Positions 3,467 through 43,488 of a stretch of DNA of 54,558 nt are shown one piece after another; the stretch's first letter is position 1; each line of letters begins with the position of its first letter. A program made the position numbers and the translations under genes. Below the pieces are notes generated by a model, which saw nothing but the letters and a program-made list of their open reading frames with translations, ran no database searches and was not told the DNA's origin. The stretch comes from an uncultured bacterium. Its GTDB lineage: Bacteria > Patescibacteriota > Minisyncoccia > Phycocordibacterales > PALSA-1337. Location: assembly GCA_903872035.1 (NCBI GenBank), contig CAIQIZ010000018.1:1-54558 (forward strand), in the 5' to 3' direction.

Positions 3467-3791
3467 GGCCCCGTGTGGCGACGCTACCCAATGGAGTCGT
3501 TCGGGAGATAAATGCGGATACTTGGCCTTGTTTGAAACCGTATGTTTGTAAAGCATCTGGACTGATCTTGCTAGCCATCTCCAAGTATTGTCCATCGAGT
3601 TTGTCGACAGAAGCGGTCAAATCCGCCGTCTGCCCTTGGATAGATTCCAAAGCCACAGTCCGAGAAATGACATGGTAGACATTCATGGCATAGAGAAACA
3701 GAGTGAATACGCAGATGAATATCAAGGCTGTGTTGATCTGGCGGCTGTACATCTCTACTACCGTGTATGTTTGTGCAATGGCTTTGGTCAT
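3456..3791 (-). CDS. FtsL-like single-pass cell division protein
   Basis: TM followed by a short coiled coil, located between rsmH and ftsI. Confidence 0.6.
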   Translation of the reverse strand: MTKAIAQTYTVVEMYSRQINTALIFICVFTLFLYAMNVYHVISRTVALESIQGQTADLTASVDKLDGQYLEMASKISPDALQTYGFKQGQVSAFISRTTPLGSVATRGHEL

Positions 3792-4825
3792 ATTTTTTCG
3801 ATTATTCTTAACTTGGCACTCCTCGATCTTGGATTCTCGGCGATCTCCTGCGTACTCGGAGTGATCGGCTTTTTTGTTAATATTTTTGCTCCTTTCGATG
3901 CTTGTTGTTTATTAAAATCTTTGACTATGCGATCTTCTAAACTATGAAATGAGATGACTGCCATACGCCCGCGCTGATTCAATCTTTCATATCCCTTGCT
4001 CAAACCCTCCTTGAGCGCATTCAACTCGTCGTTCACTGCGATCCTTAATGCTTGAAATGTCTTTGTGGCCGGATTGACTTTTCCTCTCCTGTAAAATGCC
4101 GGCACTGACGTCTTCACGATCTCCACAAGTTCAAATGTTGTCTCTATTTTCTTCTTTGCCCTGTATTCGACTATGCCTTTGGCAATGCGCCTAGCGAATC
4201 TCTCCTCACCGTATCCGAAAATGACATCTGCTATAACATCCTCTTCCCATCCATTGACGATCTCCTTTGCAGTGAACGCATACTTGCTCGGTTCCCCTAG
4301 CGTCATAAGCAGCGGTTCGTCTTTCTGAAATGTGAATCCCCTTCCAGAATTATCTAATTCGTCAGAAGAAATTCCCAAATCTAGAAGAATCATGTCTACC
4401 CCTTTGATTCCGTGCTGATCGAGAATTTGATCAAGGTTCCGGAAGCTTTCAACTTCGAGGATTAATTTTCCTTGTTCCTGCTTGCTCCCGTCTCCTCGCT
4501 CCTTAAGTGTTTCCCGCGCCCTCTCTATGGCCTGCGAATCCCTGTCGAGCCCGATAACATTCAAAGTCGTTCGCGTCTCAGCTTCGAATGCCCTCTTTAA
4601 CGCCAAAGCATGTCCTGCCCCACCAAGAGTTCCGTCCAAGTACCATTTGTTTGATTCGGAGCGAGAACCTTTGTCGGTGACGGCGCTGTGGGCCAGCGAG
4701 GAACCGACAAAGGTTCTCGCTCCCATCAATGCTTCAACTACTTCATGTAAAAGAACTGGTACGTGGATGCTATTTCCCGAACCAATGCTAGTTTCCGTGA
4801 CCTGTCGCTCGCCGGTATCTGCCAT
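3788..4825 (-). CDS. rsmH: 16S rRNA m4C1402 methyltransferase, carrying two in-frame insertions
   Basis: HVPVLLHEV, DGTLGGAGH, DLGISS, ATKTFQALRIAVNDEL, ISFHSLEDRIVK and NPRSRSAKLR motifs. Confidence 0.96.
   Translation of the reverse strand: MADTGERQVTETSIGSGNSIHVPVLLHEVVEALMGARTFVGSSLAHSAVTDKGSRSESNKWYLDGTLGGAGHALALKRAFEAETRTTLNVIGLDRDSQAIERARETLKERGDGSKQEQGKLILEVESFRNLDQILDQHGIKGVDMILLDLGISSDELDNSGRGFTFQKDEPLLMTLGEPSKYAFTAKEIVNGWEEDVIADVIFGYGEERFARRIAKGIVEYRAKKKIETTFELVEIVKTSVPAFYRRGKVNPATKTFQALRIAVNDELNALKEGLSKGYERLNQRGRMAVISFHSLEDRIVKDFNKQQASKGAKILTKKPITPSTQEIAENPRSRSAKLRIIEKI
4468..4502 (-). repeat. Degenerate 7-bp array inside rsmH (GGAGCA family)
   Basis: Minus strand GGAGCGA GGAGACG GGAGCAA GCAGGAA CAAGGAA, translated as ERGDGSKQEQG. 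Confidence 0.55.
4658..4723. repeat. Palindromic element, copy 1 (in frame inside rsmH)
   Basis: Perfect 21-bp inverted arms (4658-4678 / 4703-4723) around core CGCTG-TGGGC-CAGCG (4684-4698); 66 nt in total. Confidence 0.9.
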
Positions 4826-4829
4826 ACGC

Positions 4830-5270
4830 TTAGATCATCCCAGCCTGACCCAATTTCTCAGCCAGAGAGTCGGCTTTCCCTTCGACGTTCTTCTGGTAAG
4901 AATCCCAAGCCTCTTCATCCCAGAGCTCTGCCCTATCACGAACACCGACAAAGACGACTTTCGACTTCAAGTGCCCGCGCTCGCGCAAATGTTCCGGTAG
5001 AAGCATGCGGCCGACTGCATCAACCTCGACTTCAACAGCGCCTCCGAGGAGATATCTGTTGAAGCCGCGATTGTCCGCCTGCAGCATCGAGCTTTCATTC
5101 ACTGACAAACGCTCGGAGATCTTCTCCCACTGCTTCACCGTAAAGATGAAGAGGCAGGAATCGAGTCCGGGCGTAATAACCACCTTTTTGCCCATCTCCT
5201 GTCTGAATTTGGCAGGAAGGGAGAGGCGGTTCTTGTCATCGATAGTGTGTGTGAATTGTCCTATTAACAT
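4830..5270 (-). CDS. mraZ: Division/cell wall cluster transcriptional repressor MraZ
   Basis: MLIGQFTHTIDDKNRLSLPAKFR and DAVGRMLLP repeats; start moved to 5270. Confidence 0.95.
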   Translation of the reverse strand: MLIGQFTHTIDDKNRLSLPAKFRQEMGKKVVITPGLDSCLFIFTVKQWEKISERLSVNESSMLQADNRGFNRYLLGGAVEVEVDAVGRMLLPEHLRERGHLKSKVVFVGVRDRAELWDEEAWDSYQKNVEGKADSLAEKLGQAGMI

Positions 5271-5357
5271 AGAACTTGCCCGATTTACACATATGCCCGC
5301 GGGAATGATGGAGAGGTCCTTCTTCAATATTTAAAATAATGAGAAATATTTTCCTTA

Positions 5358-5451: not shown

Positions 5452-6209
5452 AGGTCAGACCTATCCGACCAGATATAGGTCTGACCTAAATCTTCATAGT
5501 TTATTGAGACTTTTTTTATCCATTTTTGAATTATTTTTGAGAGTTTCTTCATCTCCATCGTGTATGATTGAAAGCATATGATTCCAGATATCTATTATCA
5601 CGTCTATAATCGAGGCGCGCATAAAGCCGACATATTTCTCGACGGTTCTGATTACGTTCGCATGCTCAAGCTGCTATACATCGCCAATAATGATGCGCCT
5701 TTTATCATGGAGCAACTTCCTGATAATATATTTGGGGTAAAAAGAAATAGGATTCTCGTTGATATAGTCGCATACTGCTTGATGCCAAATCATATTCATA
5801 TAGTGCTCAAGAAACGGTTACAGATTGAATCTTCTGCTGTCGATTCAATTGCACGTTTTATTCACAAACTAGCCACTGGATATACTGTATATTTTAATAA
5901 TAAATACGGACATTCTGGCACCATTTGGCAGGGCTCATATAAAGAAAAGATTGTTTATGATGGGCTATATATCCAAACATTGATCAAATACGTGCATTTA
6001 AACCCTCGTAGTTTAATAAATCCAGATATGTCAAAACCATCATGCGATAAGAACGATGCGGAAACCAATGAATTCGTAATGAAATACGAATATTCCAGTA
6101 TCAAAGACTACAATGGGATCATTCGCCCTCAAAGATCTATACTGAACGTCTCAGAATTGCTTCCTTTTCAAGTAGGTTAAACCAAAATCATGCATTATAG
6201 GTCTGACCT
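5452..6209 (+). mobile_element. RAYT locus: HUH Y1 transposase flanked by REP-like palindromes
   Basis: AGGTCAGACCTAT-N10-ATAGGTCTGACCT at 5452-5487 and TATAGGTCTGACCT at 6196-6209 flank the transposase gene. Confidence 0.8.
5578..6180 (+). CDS. REP-associated tyrosine transposase (RAYT, IS200/IS605 Y1 superfamily)
   Basis: YHVYNRG, YCLMPNHIH (HUH), catalytic YVHLNP and YEYSS motifs. Confidence 0.9.
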   Translation: MIPDIYYHVYNRGAHKADIFLDGSDYVRMLKLLYIANNDAPFIMEQLPDNIFGVKRNRILVDIVAYCLMPNHIHIVLKKRLQIESSAVDSIARFIHKLATGYTVYFNNKYGHSGTIWQGSYKEKIVYDGLYIQTLIKYVHLNPRSLINPDMSKPSCDKNDAETNEFVMKYEYSSIKDYNGIIRPQRSILNVSELLPFQVG

Positions 6210-10634: not shown

Positions 10635-11428
10635 CAGATCAATCTCATTCTCAGATCGACCAAAACCCAACGGAGCTCGAAAAGATTGACCGGCGGCGCG
10701 AAGAGGATAGTCTGGAATGTCTGCGCCGGATCAGCCAACACAGAAGTTACTACACCGAATGGCTTGGCATTCAAGGACGGTATGGTCACAAAATCACCTT
10801 GTGAGACTTTGATGTCTCGTGGCAATTCGGCTGAATATTGTCCACCGCCACGACCAACTGCAGTGGCTGATGAGTGACTAGGACCGATCAAGACTGAATA
10901 TGTTTCCCTAGGCGAAGAAAAAAGGTGCACCGTCGAGGTCTGACCCAATACCTGCGAGATCCGGCCAATAGGCACATCTCCGACAGCGTAGACATTATTT
11001 CCGACAGAAAATCCGGCGTCGTTGCCAGCGTCGATAATGAGTTCGTCATAGGCGGCCGATGGCGGATGTTTCAATACCGCTGCCAAGATATATGGCGTCG
11101 TCGAGGCCCGTCCCATCAAGGATTTCAGTTCCAAATTTTCCGTCTCGACCGATTTGATAGTATCCAAACGCACTTTCGCATCATCAAGCTCTCTTTGTAG
11201 ATATTGATTCTCCGCTAACAAACCCTCCGGCGTACGCATTGAGCCAAGCTGTAAAGCTAGCTGCGCTCTCCAGAAAGGCCTGACCAAGGTCGTCATGACT
11301 GCTGGGAAGAATGATGGCCGAAAGAATTGGGTGGCCCCTCCCAGCAAAAGAACGACGATAGTAATACCCACGACCACCCTTGCAGGTAAACTAACACGGC
11401 TTTTATGAACTTGAAGGTAAGTCATCAC
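10634..11428 (-). CDS. mreC: Rod shape-determining protein MreC
   Basis: TM, coiled coil (ENLELKSLMGR), IIDAG..G and PIGRI beta domain; follows mreB. Confidence 0.88.
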   Translation of the reverse strand: MMTYLQVHKSRVSLPARVVVGITIVVLLLGGATQFFRPSFFPAVMTTLVRPFWRAQLALQLGSMRTPEGLLAENQYLQRELDDAKVRLDTIKSVETENLELKSLMGRASTTPYILAAVLKHPPSAAYDELIIDAGNDAGFSVGNNVYAVGDVPIGRISQVLGQTSTVHLFSSPRETYSVLIGPSHSSATAVGRGGGQYSAELPRDIKVSQGDFVTIPSLNAKPFGVVTSVLADPAQTFQTILFAPPVNLFELRWVLVDLRMRLI

Positions 11429-12492
11429 TATTTGCTTGACGGCAGATCATCCTCGCTCTGCAAAAGAACGCTCTTATACTTTTCTATATCTTCAAGAATG
11501 ATGCCAGCTCCGCGAGCGATGGCGGTGATAGGGTCTTCGGCAACCGTAACTGGAAGCTGTAGGACTTCTGAGAGAAGATCCCTCAAACCTTTTATGAGCG
11601 CTCCGCCACCTACCAGATATATGCCACGCTTCATGATATCGGCCATGATCTCTGGTGGTGTCATTTCCAAAACCTCTCGCGTTGTCGCCACCAAGACTTC
11701 TATAGACTGTCCCATGGCTTCTCGAATATCAGAGTCAGTGATGACCACTTCGCGAGGAAGACCAGTGATAAGATCTCGACCACGGATAACTGTCTCCAAA
11801 GGTTCGGCTGGCACTACTGCTCCAACAGCGATCTTCACCTGTTCAGCTGTCGTCTCGCCTATCAAAATCTTAAATTCGTTGCGAATGTATGAAATGATGT
11901 CCTGATTGAATTTATCTCCAGCGATCTTCAAGCTCTTTGAGCGGACGATCCCACCTAAAGAAATAATGGCAATGTCTGTAGTACCTCCACCGATATCGAT
12001 GACCATGCTTCCAACTGGGTCGAATATCGGCAAACGAATTCCTATAGCACCAGCGATGGGTTGTTCGACTATATAAACTTCCCGCGCCCCGGCATTTTTT
12101 GTGGCATCGCGCACAGCCCTAACCTCCACATTTGTCACACCAGACGGAACACCGACGACCACTCGTGGACCGAGAAATCTTTTCGGCATATATTCATTGG
12201 CACGCCGCATCAGATATGAGAGCATCTCTTCCGTCACTTCAAAATCGGAAATTACCCCGTCAACTAAAGGCCTTACAGCCGTTATATGCGTCGGCGTCCT
12301 GCCAAGCATATCCTTAGCAGCCGTGCCAACAGCTACGACTTGGCCTGTCTTTTGATTTACGGCGACAACCGATGGCTCAGTAACGACTATACCCTTACCT
12401 CGCACGTATACGAGGGTGTTGGCAGTACCAAGGTCTATGCCGATTTCATTAGAAAATCGATTGAAAAGTTTGTCTTTAGCTTCCTTGAACAT
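11428..12492 (-). CDS. mreB: Rod shape-determining protein MreB
   Basis: IGIDLGTANT, DIGGGTT and LVGGGALIKGL motifs. Confidence 0.97.
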   Translation of the reverse strand: MFKEAKDKLFNRFSNEIGIDLGTANTLVYVRGKGIVVTEPSVVAVNQKTGQVVAVGTAAKDMLGRTPTHITAVRPLVDGVISDFEVTEEMLSYLMRRANEYMPKRFLGPRVVVGVPSGVTNVEVRAVRDATKNAGAREVYIVEQPIAGAIGIRLPIFDPVGSMVIDIGGGTTDIAIISLGGIVRSKSLKIAGDKFNQDIISYIRNEFKILIGETTAEQVKIAVGAVVPAEPLETVIRGRDLITGLPREVVITDSDIREAMGQSIEVLVATTREVLEMTPPEIMADIMKRGIYLVGGGALIKGLRDLLSEVLQLPVTVAEDPITAIARGAGIILEDIEKYKSVLLQSEDDLPSSK

Positions 12493-12530: not shown

Positions 12531-12602
12531 GACGCATAGAAAGAATATACCGTCTTGCCGCTGGCCCACAGCGCTCAAACCGATATATTCTTTCTATGCG
12601 TC
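12531..12602. repeat. Palindromic element, copy 2 (intergenic, smc-mreB)
   Basis: Perfect 19-bp arms (12531-12549 / 12584-12602) around core CGCTG-GCCCA-CAGCG (12559-12573). Confidence 0.9.
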
Positions 12603-12613
12603 AATCAAAATTT

Positions 12614-14995
12614 CTATTTCGCCACCGCCACTGCTTCTTCGAAGGCGATCGAAAGCAGCTTGGAGGCGCCGTCAGAGCCCATGGTCACGCCATACAAGAC
12701 GCCGGCACGAGACATGGTCTCGCGGTTATGGGTGATGAGAATGAGTTGTGAGCGCTTGGAAAGATTTTCGATCATATCGCCATACTTCTTAGAATTGGCT
12801 TCGTCCAATGCCGCATCTGTTTCATCGAGAATGATGAATGGCGGCGGATTGACTTGAGAGACAGCAAATAGAAGCGCTATTGAAGTAAGGGCACGTTCGC
12901 CGCCGGAAAGCATCATGAGCCCTTTGACTTTCTTACGCGGCAAACTGATGTTGACATCGAGACCTTCTGGACCTTCTTCGACATTAGCAAATCCGAACCC
13001 AGAGTCGCTGAAATCTTCTCCGTCGCGTCGCTGGCCCACAGCGCCCGCGCCAGAGAAGATCTCATCGCCTCCAGAAAGTGCTTCGCTTAATTCTTCCCCG
13101 TCGCTCTTTTTTCTTCGCTTTGCTTCTCGGACCACTGTAAGTTCCGCTTTTCCGCCCCCAAACATCAGGGTAAAGAATTTTTGGAATTCGGTGTTAATTT
13201 TCAATATTCCGCTCTTGAATTCAAAATCAATTCGCTGATCCAACTCGGCGATCAGTTTGATGAGTTCGGCTTTGGCTTTTTCCAGATCCTCGAGCTCTTT
13301 CATGAGGAAGCTGTCGCGCTCCTCCGTTTCTTTGTATTCCTTCAAGACCTCTGCCCCACCGCTACCACCGGCATCTTCTAGGCGAATCTTATTCTTCTCT
13401 ATTTTTCTTCTGCGTTCTTCTTGGGCTGAACGTGAAGCAACGGCGCCGTCAGATCGCACTCCGGTTTGCCGCTGGCCCACAGCGCTCAAACCAGAGTGCG
13501 ATTCTCCGGCGCCTGTGACTTCGTTGTACTCCACCGCCTCTCTTCCTACGATTATTCCAGCCTCCCCAAGGTCATGTTTGAAGTTCTCCTCTTCATGAGC
13601 AAGCATATTCATGGCCGTCGTCAGATTGGCAACCACGTTCCGGATCTCATTCTGCCTAGCAATGATCTTGAAGACATCCTTTTCCGCTTCGCGGTTGGTG
13701 TCCTTCTCCTTCTCTATGGTCGACTTCAATTCCTCATATTCGCGGACGTATTTCAATTCATTTTCCACAGCACTCTTAAGTTTACTCTCGAATTCCGATC
13801 GCTCGCGTGAAAGAACCTCGATTTCCTTTTCCGCTTCGCTAATCAATGCCGAATCACTCACCGCTTTGTGGCGAGCAATAAATCCTCGTAAAGCTCCGAC
13901 AACTTCACTGAAAAGCTTTCTGACATCTTCTATCGTCCGCATCCCTTCTATAGATTGCACTACTTCCTCGACATCTTTCAAACGGACCATCTTCAATTCT
14001 TCATTTTTTATCCTAGCCTCTTCCTTCATAATGGCACGCCTATCAGCATTGATCTCGCCTTCAAGCCTTCCTAACTCGCGAGTAATAGAATCCTTCTCGC
14101 TCCGGCATTGCTTCAATCTCTCTTCAAGGGAAATGACCTTGTCACTCTTTGTGTCTTTATTCTTGGAATCAGTCAGGATCTTCTTTGCCTGTTCCAATTG
14201 ATGATCAAGCTCGGCTAATTCCTTTTTGGGCCCAGCAATCTCGGCTGACAGGCGCTGCTTTTCAGTCTGAATGTAAAACTCCTCAATGGCAAAATATTCT
14301 TTGTATAAAAGAATCAATTCTTTTCGGAGCTCTTCGGCCTTCTCAACTTTTTCAACTTGTTTTTTCAGGAAGCGAATATGTGGCGCGATCTCACGTCGGA
14401 GCGATTCTACCTGCTTCATATTCTCGTCGGTCCGCTCTAATTTCCGCAAGCTTTCCAATTTCTTCCATTGATAGATCTTCAAACCGAGCGCATCTTCTAT
14501 CATTTCCCTTCTTTCGCGAATAGAAGCCGAAAGAATGCGATCAGCTTCTCCTTGTGAAATGATATGATGCCCAGTTGCGCCGATATGTGCGCTAGCCAAA
14601 AGCTCCACGATGTCTTTCAAGCGGACTTGGCTACCATTCAATAAGTACTCATTGGAATTGTCGCGATGTACGACGCGCTCCAGAGAGACCTCGTCGAAAT
14701 CGATCGACGGGAACAATTTTTGGGAATTATCAAAAACAACTTTAACGCTAGCTCGATTGGCTCTGCCAGCTGACGAGGCAGATTCGCCGCCGCCATTCCA
14801 GATCATATCTTCACCTCTTTTACCGCGTAATGATTTGATTGATTGTTCGCCGAGCACAAAACGAAATGCTTCAGCTGTGTTGGACTTTCCTGAGCCATTG
14901 GGTCCAACAACGCCGGTTATAGCGCTGGTGAATTGTAGGCTGGCTTTCTTGGCAAATGATTTGAAGCCGGATAATTCCAGAGATTTGAGATACAT
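12614..14995 (-). CDS. smc: Short SMC-family ATPase (about 790 aa, no recognisable hinge)
   Basis: MYLKSLELSGFKSF start (moved to 14995), GPNGSGKSN Walker A, LSGGE signature, ILDETDAALD Walker B. Confidence 0.85.
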   Translation of the reverse strand: MYLKSLELSGFKSFAKKASLQFTSAITGVVGPNGSGKSNTAEAFRFVLGEQSIKSLRGKRGEDMIWNGGGESASSAGRANRASVKVVFDNSQKLFPSIDFDEVSLERVVHRDNSNEYLLNGSQVRLKDIVELLASAHIGATGHHIISQGEADRILSASIRERREMIEDALGLKIYQWKKLESLRKLERTDENMKQVESLRREIAPHIRFLKKQVEKVEKAEELRKELILLYKEYFAIEEFYIQTEKQRLSAEIAGPKKELAELDHQLEQAKKILTDSKNKDTKSDKVISLEERLKQCRSEKDSITRELGRLEGEINADRRAIMKEEARIKNEELKMVRLKDVEEVVQSIEGMRTIEDVRKLFSEVVGALRGFIARHKAVSDSALISEAEKEIEVLSRERSEFESKLKSAVENELKYVREYEELKSTIEKEKDTNREAEKDVFKIIARQNEIRNVVANLTTAMNMLAHEEENFKHDLGEAGIIVGREAVEYNEVTGAGESHSGLSAVGQRQTGVRSDGAVASRSAQEERRRKIEKNKIRLEDAGGSGGAEVLKEYKETEERDSFLMKELEDLEKAKAELIKLIAELDQRIDFEFKSGILKINTEFQKFFTLMFGGGKAELTVVREAKRRKKSDGEELSEALSGGDEIFSGAGAVGQRRDGEDFSDSGFGFANVEEGPEGLDVNISLPRKKVKGLMMLSGGERALTSIALLFAVSQVNPPPFIILDETDAALDEANSKKYGDMIENLSKRSQLILITHNRETMSRAGVLYGVTMGSDGASKLLSIAFEEAVAVAK
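13013..13060. repeat. Palindromic element, copy 3 (in frame inside smc)
   Basis: ATCTTCTC/GAGAAGAT outer arms, core at 13029-13043; translated as ...GAVGQRRD... Confidence 0.8.
13442..13513. repeat. Palindromic element, copy 4 (in frame inside smc)
   Basis: Nested arms GGCGCCG/CGGCGCC, ATCGCACTC/GAGTGCGAT and GGTTTG/CAAACC around the core at 13470-13484; 27 nt identical to copy 2. Confidence 0.88.
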
Positions 14996-32162: not shown

Positions 32163-32810
32163 CTATTCTTTTTCAAGCACAACAACCTCCGCATCCTTCC
32201 CTTCCAGATCTTTTTTCTTCAAAGTCAGCTTACCTTCCGGCTTGGGATTCTCGCCAGCTTCTTTTAGAAAAGCTTTCAAAGCATCCTTACTCCCCAGATC
32301 GCCATAATGAATAGGGATAATGAGCTTAGGACCTATAGAAACAGCTAGCTTGTAGGCTTGGGCTGGATTCAAAACGCCATTTCCACCGATAGGCACAAAT
32401 AGAATATCGACATCCTCGATCCCTTCATCCGTCTCTTTTGGTAATTCGGGAGTATTAACGGCTCCAAGGAAGCAGATATTCATTCCTTCAAGAGCGACCG
32501 TAAATATTGTATTGATCCGTGCATCATTGCTAGGAGTTTGACCATCGTAGTTCGACTGCGAAGCTAAACCCTTGATGAATACCCCCTTTACTTCATATTC
32601 GCCAGGACCAGAAATAACAAAAGGTTTCTTCTCTCCAAATGAGACTTGATCGACGCCATTCATATCTGGATGATTGAGGCTAGAAAGAACGATGTCGGCC
32701 CCGAACTTAGCGGTTTTGAGGTCGGAATCTTTGGAAACCGGATTGAATGCCAGAATTGTGTCGCCGAACTGCGCTTTGACGAATTCCCCGCCGAGGTAGG
32801 TTATGATCAT
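32163..32810 (-). CDS. MBL-fold protein with a degenerate metal motif
   Basis: MIITYLG, ADIVLSSLNHPDMN, ISGPGEYEVKG, DILFVPIGG and IPIHY motifs. Confidence 0.8.
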   Translation of the reverse strand: MIITYLGGEFVKAQFGDTILAFNPVSKDSDLKTAKFGADIVLSSLNHPDMNGVDQVSFGEKKPFVISGPGEYEVKGVFIKGLASQSNYDGQTPSNDARINTIFTVALEGMNICFLGAVNTPELPKETDEGIEDVDILFVPIGGNGVLNPAQAYKLAVSIGPKLIIPIHYGDLGSKDALKAFLKEAGENPKPEGKLTLKKKDLEGKDAEVVVLEKE

Positions 32811-32945: not shown

Positions 32946-33087
32946 CACTTTAGTTGACTAAAGTCAGATCTCTCAAAAAACGTCTCAAAAGAATCATCTG
33001 CGACTTTAGTTGACTAAAGTGCGCTCCGGCGAAACAGACTACCCCCCGGCTCGCGATTGTGAAAGTGGCGGATTTTCCGCCACTTTC
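32946..33087. repeat. REP-like palindrome cluster upstream of rpsA
   Basis: ACTTTAGT-TG-ACTAAAGT at 32947-32964 and 33003-33020; GAAAGTGGCGGA-TTT-TCCGCCACTTTC at 33061-33087. Confidence 0.8.
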
Positions 33088-33233: not shown

Positions 33234-34565
33234 ATGTTCAAGAAATTAAGAGAAACGCTTACAGGACACAAAGAAGAGCAAGAAGTAAAGAGTAAGGAGC
33301 AAACAGAAGTCGAAAACACTCAAACAACGCCTAAAAGCGCTGCAGTTTCAACGGCGAAGGCTGATCCTATCGCAACAAGCACACAGAGCGATGCTCCAGT
33401 AAAGAAGGCCGCCAAGGCGGTAGCAGAAAGAAAGCCGAGAACCTTCTCGGACCCGTCTTTGCCGCCCAAGGAAAAGGAGATGGTACTGACCGACGAGCAG
33501 AAAGCTAGCCCGATGGGTAAGCTTATCCTGACCATGAAGAATCCTCCGATAATCGGAGATTTGGTAGAAGGCCCAGTCATCACCGTCGAAAAATCATCTG
33601 TTTATGTCGATCTGGCTCCTTTTGGAACCGGTATCATCTACGGTCGTGAATTCATGATCGCCCGCGATGTCATCAAGAAGATCAACGTCGGTGATGTCAT
33701 CGCCGCCAAGATCGTCGACACTTCGCACAAGGAAGGATATTACGAGCTATCACTTAAGGAAGCTCGCCAGGCTCTCATTTGGAATGAGGCTGAAGTCGCC
33801 ATCAAAGAAAAGAAGGTCTTAGACCTTCCGGTCAAGGAAGCCAACAAGGGCGGACTCCTCATCGAATGGCAAGGCATCATCGGATTCCTACCAGCTTCAC
33901 AACTCAAGGCTGAGCACTATCCGCGCATCACTGATGGCGATAAAGATAAGATCCTGGATGAATTGAAGAAGTTGGTCGGCACACGTCTAAATGTAGCTAT
34001 CATCACGGCCGATCCAAAGGAAGGCAAGCTCATCTTCTCGGAAAAGGGTTCTGAAACCAAGGAGAAGGAGAAGATCGTCAGCAAGTATGAGATCGGAGAT
34101 GAAGTCGATGGAACAGTCACAGGAGTCGTCGATTTCGGCATCTTCGTCAAGCTGGAAGAAGGTTTGGAGGGATTGGTCCATATCTCCGAGATCGATTGGG
34201 GTCTAGTAGATGATCCTCGCAACTTCGTCAAGGTCGGCCAAAAGATCAAGGCCAAGATCATCGAGATCAAAGATGGCAAGATTTCCCTATCACTGAAACA
34301 ATTGAAACAGAATCCTTGGGTCGATGCTTCCAAGAAGTATTCCAAAGATATGTCTGTTACCGGAGTCATCATCAAGTTCAACAAGCATGGTGCCCTAGCT
34401 TCCATCGAGGAAGGTGTGGCCGGCTTGGTCCATGTCTCCGAATTCGGTTCTGAAGAAAAGCTCCGCAAAACCCTCGAGTTAGGCAAGACTTACGACTTCA
34501 AGATCAGCCTCTTCGATCCCAAGGAACAGAAGATGGCGCTCACTTATACCGGAGTTAAGAATTAA
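33234..34565 (+). CDS. rpsA: 30S ribosomal protein S1 (four S1 domains, low-complexity N-terminus)
   Basis: Repeated S1 motifs (GFLPASQL, VVDFGIFV, GLVHISEI, GLVHVSEF). Confidence 0.85.
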   Translation: MFKKLRETLTGHKEEQEVKSKEQTEVENTQTTPKSAAVSTAKADPIATSTQSDAPVKKAAKAVAERKPRTFSDPSLPPKEKEMVLTDEQKASPMGKLILTMKNPPIIGDLVEGPVITVEKSSVYVDLAPFGTGIIYGREFMIARDVIKKINVGDVIAAKIVDTSHKEGYYELSLKEARQALIWNEAEVAIKEKKVLDLPVKEANKGGLLIEWQGIIGFLPASQLKAEHYPRITDGDKDKILDELKKLVGTRLNVAIITADPKEGKLIFSEKGSETKEKEKIVSKYEIGDEVDGTVTGVVDFGIFVKLEEGLEGLVHISEIDWGLVDDPRNFVKVGQKIKAKIIEIKDGKISLSLKQLKQNPWVDASKKYSKDMSVTGVIIKFNKHGALASIEEGVAGLVHVSEFGSEEKLRKTLELGKTYDFKISLFDPKEQKMALTYTGVKN

Positions 34566-42211: not shown

Positions 42212-42224
42212 GGCGTTAGTTGCA

Positions 42225-42302
42225 AGTTGAAAAGTTATAAAGTTCATAAAGTCTAAACTTGATAAACTTTCTAACTTGATAAACTTTCTAACTTTATAAC
42301 TT
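42225..42302. repeat. AAAGTT/AACTTT 8-9-bp array with inverted halves
   Basis: 13-bp inverted repeat 42232-42244 / 42290-42302; 17-bp tandem at 42256-42289. Confidence 0.75.
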
Positions 42303-42306
42303 ATTC

Positions 42307-43488
42307 ATGGCACGAAATATAATAACAGGAATTGACGTCGGCAGTTACTACATAAAGGTAGTCATCGCCACAACCAAAGAAAAGACCGAGCGCGGCTTGC
42401 CGAAGATCATCGGCGCCGCCATGACCGAGTCACGCGGGCTGCGACACGGCTATGTGACGAACCTACGAGATGTGGCTGATTCTATCAAGAGAGCCGTGGC
42501 CAGTGCCGAGGAAAAAGCCGGGATCAAAGTCAAAAAAGCCTTCGTCGGCATATCAGGTATCGGTTTATCAGCTACAACAGTCTCCAGTTTCGTAATGACT
42601 TCCCGGGCCGATGCAGAGATCACTGCTCTCGACTTGGCCAAGCTCCATGAGCAAGCCGAGAAAGACCTACCTCCAGCCATTTCCGCCAACCGCCGGACAA
42701 TATTTGATATACCTTTGCAATATAAGATCGATGGTTTCCCCTCTCTGGGCTCTCCTGAAGGAATGAAAGGAAACAAATTAGAGAAGAAGACTCTGTTTGT
42801 CACCTGCCTAGACCATCATGTGGCCGACCTTGTGAGCGCCGTAAACGATGCCGGGATCGAAGTAGAAGATATCATGGCCGCTCCGATCGCTGCTGGCTTC
42901 GTCACCCTTTCCAAATCTCAAAAAGTCGCTGGTTGTGTCTTGGCTAACATTGGAGCTGAGACTGTTTCCATTACCGTCTTCGAAAACAATATTCCTATAT
43001 CTCTGGAAGTCTTCCCTATCGGTTCTACCGACATCACCAATGACATCGCCCTAGGTCTCAAGGTTCCCTTGGAAGAAGCTGAGCAGATCAAGATCGGAGC
43101 TATCACTGGCAGCTCTTATCCCCGCAAGAAGCTGGAAGAGATCGTCAGTGCCCGCCTTTCAGATATATTTGAACTGATCGAATCCCATTTAAAGAAAATC
43201 AACCGTAACGGCCTATTACCCGCCGGCATCGTCATCACTGGTGGCGGTTCTGGTCTAAGTTCTATAGACGATATCGCCAAGGTCGCCCTCAAGCTTCCGT
43301 CACGTATCGGCAACATAGGCGTCTTGGACGGCAAGAGCTCATTTAAAGATGCTACTTGGGCGGTGGCTTACGGACTATGTATCTGGGGAGCACATGCTGA
43401 TGAAGGACCAGAGATAGACAATTCCCTACGATTCGTCAAACAAGCTTCGAAAGCCGTGACTAGGTGGTTCAAGCAATTCTTACCCTAA
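42307..43488 (+). CDS. ftsA: Cell division protein FtsA
   Basis: GIDVGS, NIGAETVS, ITNDIALGL and VITGGGS motifs. Confidence 0.93.
   Translation: MARNIITGIDVGSYYIKVVIATTKEKTERGLPKIIGAAMTESRGLRHGYVTNLRDVADSIKRAVASAEEKAGIKVKKAFVGISGIGLSATTVSSFVMTSRADAEITALDLAKLHEQAEKDLPPAISANRRTIFDIPLQYKIDGFPSLGSPEGMKGNKLEKKTLFVTCLDHHVADLVSAVNDAGIEVEDIMAAPIAAGFVTLSKSQKVAGCVLANIGAETVSITVFENNIPISLEVFPIGSTDITNDIALGLKVPLEEAEQIKIGAITGSSYPRKKLEEIVSARLSDIFELIESHLKKINRNGLLPAGIVITGGGSGLSSIDDIAKVALKLPSRIGNIGVLDGKSSFKDATWAVAYGLCIWGAHADEGPEIDNSLRFVKQASKAVTRWFKQFLP

Follow-up and report, generated by a model that had tools for sequence, protein, structure and literature searches.

How can a repeat keep its tip unchanged to the last nucleotide while the stem below it differs at every site? 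The question is raised by contig CAIQIZ010000018.1 of assembly GCA_903872035.1, from an uncultured Patescibacteria (candidate phyla radiation, CPR) bacterium of the Paceibacteria/Taylorbacteria type (the window, below, is this whole stretch of 54,558 nt), in which a 66-nt hairpin lies in frame in the rsmH gene and three further hairpins carry the same 15-nt core. A preliminary description of this DNA proposed an inserted repeat whose identity lies in a small core loop and whose arms are regenerated, and could assign it to no family. The explanation favoured here, with a little more confidence than doubt, is a small non-autonomous palindromic repeat of the repetitive extragenic palindrome (REP) type, which would be mobile as a hairpin and would have its arms templated later.

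One core in five hairpins

The copies and their host genes in the window are:

4658-4723, minus strand: copy C1, a 66-nt hairpin with its core at 4684-4698, in frame in rsmH; the gene strand reads GARTFVG-SSLAHSAV-TDKGSRS
12531-12602, plus strand: copy C2, a 72-nt hairpin in the smc-mreB spacer, with its core at 12559-12573 and a CGTC tag at 12551-12554
13002-13071, plus strand: copy C3, a hairpin of about 70 nt in frame in smc, in the head-domain loop before LSGGE, with its core at 13029-13043 and CGTC at 13021-13024; it reads GDEIFSG-AGAVGQRR-DGEDFSD
13442-13513, plus strand: copy C4, a 72-nt hairpin of 24 codons in frame in smc, with its core at 13470-13484 and GGCGCC at both ends; it reads GAGESHSG-LSAVGQRQ-TGVRSDGA
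3788-4825, minus strand: rsmH, host of C1 (Pfam Methyltransf_5 in the strain loci)
12614-14995, minus strand: smc-like gene, 793 aa from MYLKSLEL, host of C3 and C4

On the plus strand the rsmH hairpin is composed of GGAGCGAGAACCTTTGTCGGT-GACGG-CGCTGTGGGCCAGCG-AGGA-ACCGACAAAGGTTCTCGCTCC. Its arms, GGAGCGAGAACCTTTGTCGGT and ACCGACAAAGGTTCTCGCTCC, pair at 21 of 21 positions and enclose 24 nt including CGCTGTGGGCCAGCG, which is CGCTGGCCCACAGCG on the minus strand, that of the gene; the hairpin with perfect 21-bp arms around CGCTG-GCCCA-CAGCG is thus as first described. So is the recurrence of the core. The 15-mer CGCTGGCCCACAGCG is matched exactly at 4684 (minus) and at 12559, 13029 and 13470 (plus), four times against none expected, as 100 dinucleotide-preserving shuffles gave no match even at one mismatch. 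No degenerate copy was found in the window beyond these four when up to three mismatches were tolerated. All four cores form the apex of long hairpins (66-72 nt), with folding z-scores as single-stranded DNA of -9.8, -9.5, -4.2 and -8.0 for C1 to C4, and a search of the window against Rfam 15 at the gathering score returned three tRNAs only, leaving the hairpins without a match.

Three of the four copies are translated in core genes, once in rsmH and twice in smc, as had been proposed. C1 adds 22 codons read as GARTFVGSSLAHSAVTDKGSRS, and the smc copies are read as GDEIFSGAGAVGQRRDGEDFSD and GAGESHSGLSAVGQRQTGVRSDGA, with the centres ..GLSAVGQRQTG.. and ..GAGAVGQRRDG... C2 occupies the 121-nt spacer that separates the stop of smc (12614) from the start of mreB (12492). 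Taking C1 out of RsmH joins VVEALM to ESNKWYLDGTLG and leaves 12 residues from VLLHE to LDGT compared with 13 in about 40 more distant relatives, which bears out the claim that removal of the 66 nt restores near-usual spacing.

The search for the core in related DNA that the preliminary description called for produced a fifth copy. It lies on a 12.9-kb contig of matching composition (L193), which is from the same organism as the window, as a 68-nt hairpin (2782-2849) in frame in tsaD that reads ..SERVSDLSAVGQRQSGNTFRLR.., and a protein of a third organism (P0131, 77% identical; known from the protein alone) has ..SDLSAVGQRQGGNIFRLR.. at the matching TsaD site. This contig was the only real find of a metagenome scan with YCGCTGGCCCACAGCGCY, in which the other 119 of 120 among the matches listed were chance matches in high-GC contigs. 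A scan of genome contigs with the 20-mer GCCGCTGGCCCACAGCGCTC gave four chance matches (Actinomycetes, Deinococcota), a scan of viral contigs gave eight, none of them in a hairpin, and a covariance model (R1) run over 2.1 Mb of related CPR loci retrieved no members besides the known ones.

When the five copies and the rsmH copy of a sister species are aligned, the conserved unit is seen to be larger than the core, about 35 nt, and can be written yCCGnY-(TTGC/GCGT/TCCT)-CGCTGGCCCACAGCG-(CTCAA/CCCGC/CCGTC)-rYCrr: a 5'-yCCGnY, a 4-nt inner stem, CGCTG-GCCCA-CAGCG, the inner stem again and a CCA-like tail (rYCrr-3'). The idea that identity resides in a small core loop therefore holds for the constancy of the core, 15 of 15 positions in all five copies, but what is conserved is a whole small REP hairpin, its tag and tail included. 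Of the 28 pairs in the consensus fold, 19 have changed on both sides and still pair. Four of the five copies share one orientation relative to transcription. The different outer arms of each copy, also described earlier, are confirmed, since the outer 16-19 bp are no more similar between copies than shuffled sequence (p=0.33 and 0.52), and a search for a second source of the arms in the window, the L193 contig and the sister loci, including 75 kb of the organism's own genome, returned self matches only. Within one Paceibacteria lineage the unit has thus come to occupy at least five sites, five copies in about 67 kb of one organism, each at the apex of a longer hairpin with a site-specific outer stem. 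These figures rest on only five independent copies, from a sample of about 10% of the genome.

Insertion and age of the copies

The sister species (loci L201-L204, L209/L210 and L217, including GCA_003170325.1, 'Taylorbacteria fen_1323') has the same gene order, with an SMC that is 81% identical as protein and 75% as DNA. Its rsmH carries a hairpin at the orthologous site (L201, 19521-19586), with homologous arms and the 5-bp core stem kept, around the apex CGCTG-ATCGA-CAGCG; the loop is ATCGA compared with GCCCA in the window. Two arm pairs have changed on both sides between the species (A-T to C-G and T-A to C-G) and four positions on one side only, all of them mismatched in the sister. Although the copy predates the split of the two species, the window arms are perfect (21 of 21), and they therefore appear to have been kept complementary or re-made. 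The sister tsaD has a longer hairpin at the matching site, centred on ..TGGAGCCAGCGAAGCG.. compared with ..TGGGCCAGCGGCAAAGCG.. in the window's organism, and to judge by its sequence this centre looks like a core in decay, partly deleted. Symmetric indels in the tsaD arms of the two species were considered as well and dropped, the MAFFT alignment being shifted and unreliable there.

The other three copies are missing from the sister, which confirms that the elements were inserted and supplies the empty orthologous sites that had been sought, clearly at C4 and C2 and partially at C3. At C4 the loop is short both in the sister and in another outgroup (P0003), which leaves a clean gap of 24 residues, and GGCGCC is present once in the sister as against once at each end of the hairpin in the window. 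At C3 the sister lacks 51 nt (net 15 codons). At C2 its smc-mreB spacer measures 24 nt compared with 121 nt and has no hairpin, with neither arm traceable; neither arm was found in the smc-mreB spacers of the other relatives either. The outgroups P0011/L297 and P0004/L298, examined to polarise the C3 and C4 events, have no hairpin and no core; the resemblance of their peptides (GGEGFSG, ATGQR) was not distinguishable from low-complexity coincidence.

From this presence and absence, and from the comparison of the cores, the rsmH and tsaD copies are older than the species split and both smc copies and the smc-mreB copy are younger. Since the two species parted, the family has expanded in the lineage of the window, and in the sister it is decaying. 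Its hairpins can serve as lineage markers, being either decayed or missing in the sister of the species that has them. In every strain with more than 99% identity to the window, the smc copies are present. One of these strains (contig L216) differs from the window by a single-nucleotide polymorphism in 4,600 nt, at the outermost base of C4 (13513; Gly to Cys), without a compensating change in the opposite arm.

A public smc variant (P0127, 543 aa) reads ..GLSAVGPAANRSAI followed by a stop, which fits one additional G in the GGG/CCC run of the C4 core loop (13476-13478). Such a +1 frameshift, leading to a shortened SMC, may come from genuine slippage or from an error of sequencing. In practical terms, hairpins of this kind break or frameshift assemblies and gene calls, of which this variant is a possible example.

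Resemblance to known repeats

The hairpin family, called family B here, was first thought not to be assignable. It can in part be compared with one of the two super-families, GTAG- and CGTC-tagged, into which REPs have been divided (Di Nocera, De Gregorio & Rocco, 2013, PMC3733652). According to that survey, a CGTC REP has an unpaired CGTC-like tag (or TGTC/CCTC) abutting the stem, a stem of 8-9 bp whose first two pairs are A/T, a loop of 4-5 nt and a CCA-like tail; such REPs are mostly arranged as head-to-head dimers and are also intragenic, with dozens of in-frame cases in its supplement (e.g., in Opitutus terrae), and the Rickettsia palindromic elements (RPEs) RPE-4 and RPE-6 are CGTC REPs (PMC3733652). 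The comparison of family B is with this described architecture. Like the CGTC REPs it is a repeated palindrome in the 20-40 bp range (about 35 nt, five times), with in-frame intragenic copies and no transposase that it flanks. The loop is 5 nt, GCCCA in all copies, and in three copies the first pairs of the stem, about 9 bp long, are T-A. The tag is CGTC in C2 and C3, CGGT in C4 and C1, and CGCT in the tsaD copy; the stem TTG(C)CGCTG/CAGCG(CT)CAA of C2, C4 and the tsaD copy has a bulge, while in C3 this position is taken by GCG/CGC and in C1 it does not pair; the tail is ACCAG in C4, GCCAG in C3, ACCGA in C2 and C1, and ATCGG in tsaD. Unlike the head-to-head dimers, every family B unit is a singleton that caps a longer hairpin specific to its locus, and the CPR, to which the host belongs, are absent from the phyla listed in that survey. 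By analogy, then, family B resembles the CGTC REP architecture, and only in part.

The in-frame insertion into conserved protein genes (rsmH, smc twice, tsaD) and the translation as extra loops recall the RPEs, which were reportedly described by Ogata et al. in 2000. The RPE consensus is constant over its full length, however, whereas family B is constant only in its central 35 nt or so. REPINs, in which two REPs form a hairpin, offer the reverse of the present arrangement, as there the stem is built of the REPs and the tip varies, while here the tip is constant and the stem varies. No description of REP-type repeats in Patescibacteria/CPR was found in the literature searched, where the one paper that mentions both is unrelated. 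In-frame REP and RPE insertion, as well as systems of REPs with a REP-associated tyrosine transposase (RAYT), are established; the layout of constant tip and variable stem, and the hint of target-templated arms, are not described in the REP literature compared.

A RAYT-type gene and its own palindromes

A gene for a transposase of the Y1 (HUH) type stands close to the rsmH copy, together with a second family of palindromes, called family A:

5578-6180, plus strand: Y1 (HUH) transposase-like gene of RAYT type, divergent from mraZ, single copy in the window
4830-5327, minus strand: mraZ, between rsmH and the divergent Y1 open reading frame (ORF)
5452-5487, unstranded: family A doublet, AGGTCAGACCT at 5452 and AGGTCTGACCT at 5477, 91 nt upstream of the Y1 gene
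6199-6209, unstranded: third family A palindrome, AGGTCTGACCT, 19 nt downstream of the Y1 stop codon

The Y1 protein has the motifs YHVYNRG, LMPNHIHI (HIH), WQGSY and YVHLNP. It matches Pfam PF01797 (Y1_Tnp) at 31.4 bits (cut-off 23) and the NCBIfam model REP_Tyr_transpos (REP-associated tyrosine transposase) at 38.4 bits, below the cut-off of 80; a sequence search of the PDB gave no match. The gene is syntenic in the aspS-mraZ interval, with 65% identity in the sister and about 50% in two further relatives, and no other transposase-like gene was found in the window.

Family A (AGGTCnGACCT / AGGTTTAACCT) has exact matches in the window only at 5452, 5477 and 6199. Three more of its palindromes, with a GTAG/GTAT tag, lie downstream of tsaD on the L193 contig (2082-2190). 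In the sister, GGGAGGTTTAACCTAACG doublets stand on both sides of the Y1 gene (L201, 18024-18067 and 18776-18822) in the form AGGTT-T-AACCT, a compensatory stem change. With tags of GTAG, GTAT or GTGG, family A looks like a GTAG-type REP. Judged by sequence and arrangement, family A and the Y1 gene have the make-up of a classical RAYT with its own REP, a REPtron-like layout, in a CPR genome.

The preliminary description suggested looking for a transposase gene flanked by the core. A RAYT-like HUH gene is indeed present 0.85 kb from the nearest family B copy (855 nt, beyond mraZ, in rsmH), but in both species it is flanked by AGGTCnGACCT / AGGTTTAACCT palindromes instead. The RAYT systems that go with REPINs (Bertels & Rainey, 2011, PMC3116915) share with this locus a single-copy, vertically inherited Y1/HUH transposase homologue adjoining short palindromic repeats, and lineage-specific repeats that expand in one lineage and decay in its sister; they differ in that the gene here is flanked by AGGTCnGACCT, covarying with GGGAGGTTTAACCTAACG in the sister, and not by family B. 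A link of this enzyme to family B is plausible in kind and not supported by the arrangement, and since it is family A that brackets the gene, the REP/RAYT pairing is unproven for family B. Similar systems were reportedly also described by Nunvar et al. in 2010.

Origin of the arms

C3 is the best single piece of evidence on where arms may come from, and the comparison with the sister directly supports arm templating at this one site only. The alignment gap spans the gene-upstream arm, the inner stem and the core, while the gene-downstream arm, GAAGATTTCAGCGACTCTG, aligns gap-free to native, syntenic sister sequence, GAGGATTTGAGAGACGCTG, at 15 of 19 identical positions, which is the background identity, and the alignment runs on into the flank. 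Against shuffled arms the downstream arm scores at p=0.0006 and the upstream arm at p=0.14. The downstream arm is therefore native to the host, and its partner repeats it in inverted form. With perfect arms in an old insertion, two double changes and single changes that are all in the sister, the rsmH copy fits a recopying of arm from arm. In the rsmH and tsaD loops, variability is too great for the origin of the arms to be polarised.

Replication template switching at inverted repeats is known to homogenise and lengthen arms and may invert the spacer (PMC8794818, PMC8604942, PMC13100816). A single such event can make, lengthen and re-perfect stems and produce apparent compensatory changes, which matches C3 and the rsmH copy; the cited cases start from chance local inverted repeats, whereas here the seed would be a mobile, repeated REP unit and the switch itself is deduced. 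In the proposed sequence of events the unit would move as a single-stranded hairpin through an HUH/Y1 enzyme, either the neighbouring RAYT-like protein or another; the RAYT-like gene (5578-6180) is the only candidate in 75 kb. Once landed, the short perfect inverted repeat may seed intrastrand template switching during replication, and adjacent host sequence would be copied inverted, so that the arms grow outward and are later re-homogenised. As a variant, by analogy with rolling-hairpin replication, an HUH-joined unit at the nascent 3' end might snap back and prime its own strand. Growth and refreshing of this kind could be the reason why the arms are self-complementary yet copy-specific, and why they are perfect in an old copy.

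Several observations weigh against this account. At C4 the outgroups P0002 and P0003 are both short-looped, and by parsimony all 72 nt, both arms included, are therefore new; no relative has either arm of C2 in its spacer. In both species it is family A, not family B, that stands beside the Y1 gene, and CGTC REPs are apparently without a dedicated transposase (PMC3733652). The CGTC tag is exact in only two of the five copies, and all five are singletons, unlike the CGTC REPs, which are mostly dimers. With five copies from about a tenth of the genome, subfamilies that share arms may exist, and transposition, cleavage and template switch are all inferred from comparison of sequences. The regeneration of arms claimed earlier accordingly keeps part of its ground, in the native and inverted arms of C3 and in the compensated, perfect arms of rsmH, and loses part of it to parsimony at C4. 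That the arms are at least partly templated from the target is a proposition on which we are close to evenly divided, leaning slightly against.

If it is true, it would join HUH/REP mobile DNA with template-switch mutagenesis, which are usually treated as separate fields, and would give small-genome bacteria a concrete route to new surface loops in essential proteins. A wider suggestion, which we regard as doubtful though worth stating, is that the REP acts as a palindrome seed from which template switching (or HUH 3'-end snap-back) builds and refreshes locus-specific hairpins, as a recurrent source, in these CPR bacteria, of translated loops of 15-25 residues in essential proteins (rsmH, smc, tsaD).

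Alternative explanations

The hairpins may instead have been inserted whole, as pieces of 66-72 nt resembling miniature inverted-repeat transposable elements (MITEs), with arms brought from a donor copy and arm-sharing subfamilies residing in the unsampled 90% or so of the genome. C4 speaks for such an origin, being a clean gain of 24 codons when set against two outgroups, and its GGCGCC ends resemble a target duplication of 6 bp. The arms of C2, found in no relative's spacer, point the same way, as do the rsmH and tsaD gains, which amount to the full hairpin length compared with canonical loops. The GGCGCC is ambiguous as a target duplication, however, since the hexamer is itself palindromic, and terminal sequences that vary per copy, with a repeated end only in C4, set family B apart from MITEs. 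Five copies with five unrelated arm pairs, no second arm match in 75 kb of the organism's own genome, a native arm of C3 that continues into the flank and the lack of other members under the covariance model in 2.1 Mb of related CPR DNA make whole-hairpin insertion unlikely. Less likely again is that the REP unit, about 35 nt long, enters or replaces the single-stranded tip of hairpins that were already there, the arms being older than the core. Single-stranded DNA is the substrate of HUH enzymes, the sister shares the rsmH and tsaD hairpins but with different apex sequences, and other palindromes occupy the same loops in other lineages (e.g., L004, L013, L002 and L219). The sister apices are nevertheless recognisable as decayed cores (CGCTG-ATCGA-CAGCG; TGGAGCCAGCGAAGCG compared with TGGGCCAGCGGCAAAGCG), which descent and decay would explain, and the sister has no hairpin at C2 and C4 and a single arm at C3.

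Maintenance by the host would be another way to a constant core. The hairpins might be kept for a function, as RNase III or decay signals from RNA stems of 20-27 bp or through a core bound by a DNA- or RNA-binding protein, and the identity of the core in five copies, two of them older than the split, the pairing kept by compensatory changes and the shared orientation of four copies would all be expected. Yet in the sister the cores decay and three copies are absent while the genes are kept, the insertion sites lie in unrelated genes, no Rfam family matches, and the arm mismatches show a G-U bias in the sense transcript (8 compared with 3) that is not significant; we rate host selection as improbable, on a par with the insertion into existing tips. 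An artefact of assembly or amplification (e.g., a fold-back chimera) is suggested by nothing except the palindromic form and can practically be dismissed, because many samples, assembled independently (ENA, JGI, NCBI and Logan), give the identical hairpin sequence; no reading frame is broken, and another species has an orthologous copy. The REP-type unit with later-templated arms is thus retained as the best explanation.

Permissive loops

The sites in RsmH, SMC and TsaD are variable surface loops and hot spots for palindromic insertion across the clade, and the copies survive only where an in-frame gain of 15-24 residues is tolerated. The RsmH loop from VLLHE to LDGT, 13 aa long in the distant relatives, extends to 14-36 aa in closer ones, several of which (L004, L013, L002 and L003) hold other palindromes. 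The TsaD loop from GGHTEL to GQT has 12 residues in 59 of 72 relatives and up to 51 elsewhere, in some cases with strong hairpin formation. Both smc insertion sites are weakly conserved loops of variable length. Under the seeding suggestion above, growth of loops from a landed repeat would be the reason for such hot spots.

A TsaD loop of 51 residues in L219 (2920-3072) forms a very stable hairpin (-32 kcal/mol) of unrelated sequence and is further evidence that this loop is a palindrome hot spot. In another Paceibacteria metagenome-assembled genome (L004; 10050-10101 and 18339-18395) the RsmH loop contains two in-frame palindromes like those of family A (CCAAGGTCGGACCTTGG), and the loop has therefore been struck by a different repeat family in another lineage.

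Genomic setting and other palindromes

This bacterium is abundant in many public samples, and its closest RsmH relatives among GTDB species representatives are 66% identical. The local genes form a dcw-type cluster, with murE/F-like genes, a penicillin-binding protein (PBP) gene, an ftsL-like gene, rsmH and mraZ on one side of the Y1 gene. Beyond mraZ follow the divergent 200-aa ORF (5578-6180, plus strand), aspS, greA, PBP2, an mreD-like gene, mreC and mreB (11428-12492), then the SMC-like gene (12614-14995), rnc and nusB. The right end of the window is a contig break common to the assemblies. Past position 1, beyond a tRNA at 139-210, some strains have an island with genes for a serine recombinase, a helix-turn-helix protein and a PD-(D/E)XK protein (L213, 11394-21192; L214 differs), and no hairpin copies were found in this strain-variable island.

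An imperfect inverted repeat of 18-20 nt in mraZ keeps its position in three lineages (5021-5073 in the window; L006, 9756-9808; L022, 7470-7522). At 32946-33021 two copies of the 20-nt palindrome ACTTTAGTTGACTAAAGT are placed 36 nt apart between divergent genes (32163-32810, minus strand; 33234-34565, plus strand), and have the look of a pair of operators. Just upstream of the ORF at 42307-43488 there is an imperfect inverted repeat, rich in AAGTT, with 29-nt arms (42224-42302). Between about 23700 and 26630 (L307, 15036-17962) there are six small tandem genes with Pfam matches of the type IV secretion system (T4SS) pilin/TrbC-like kind.

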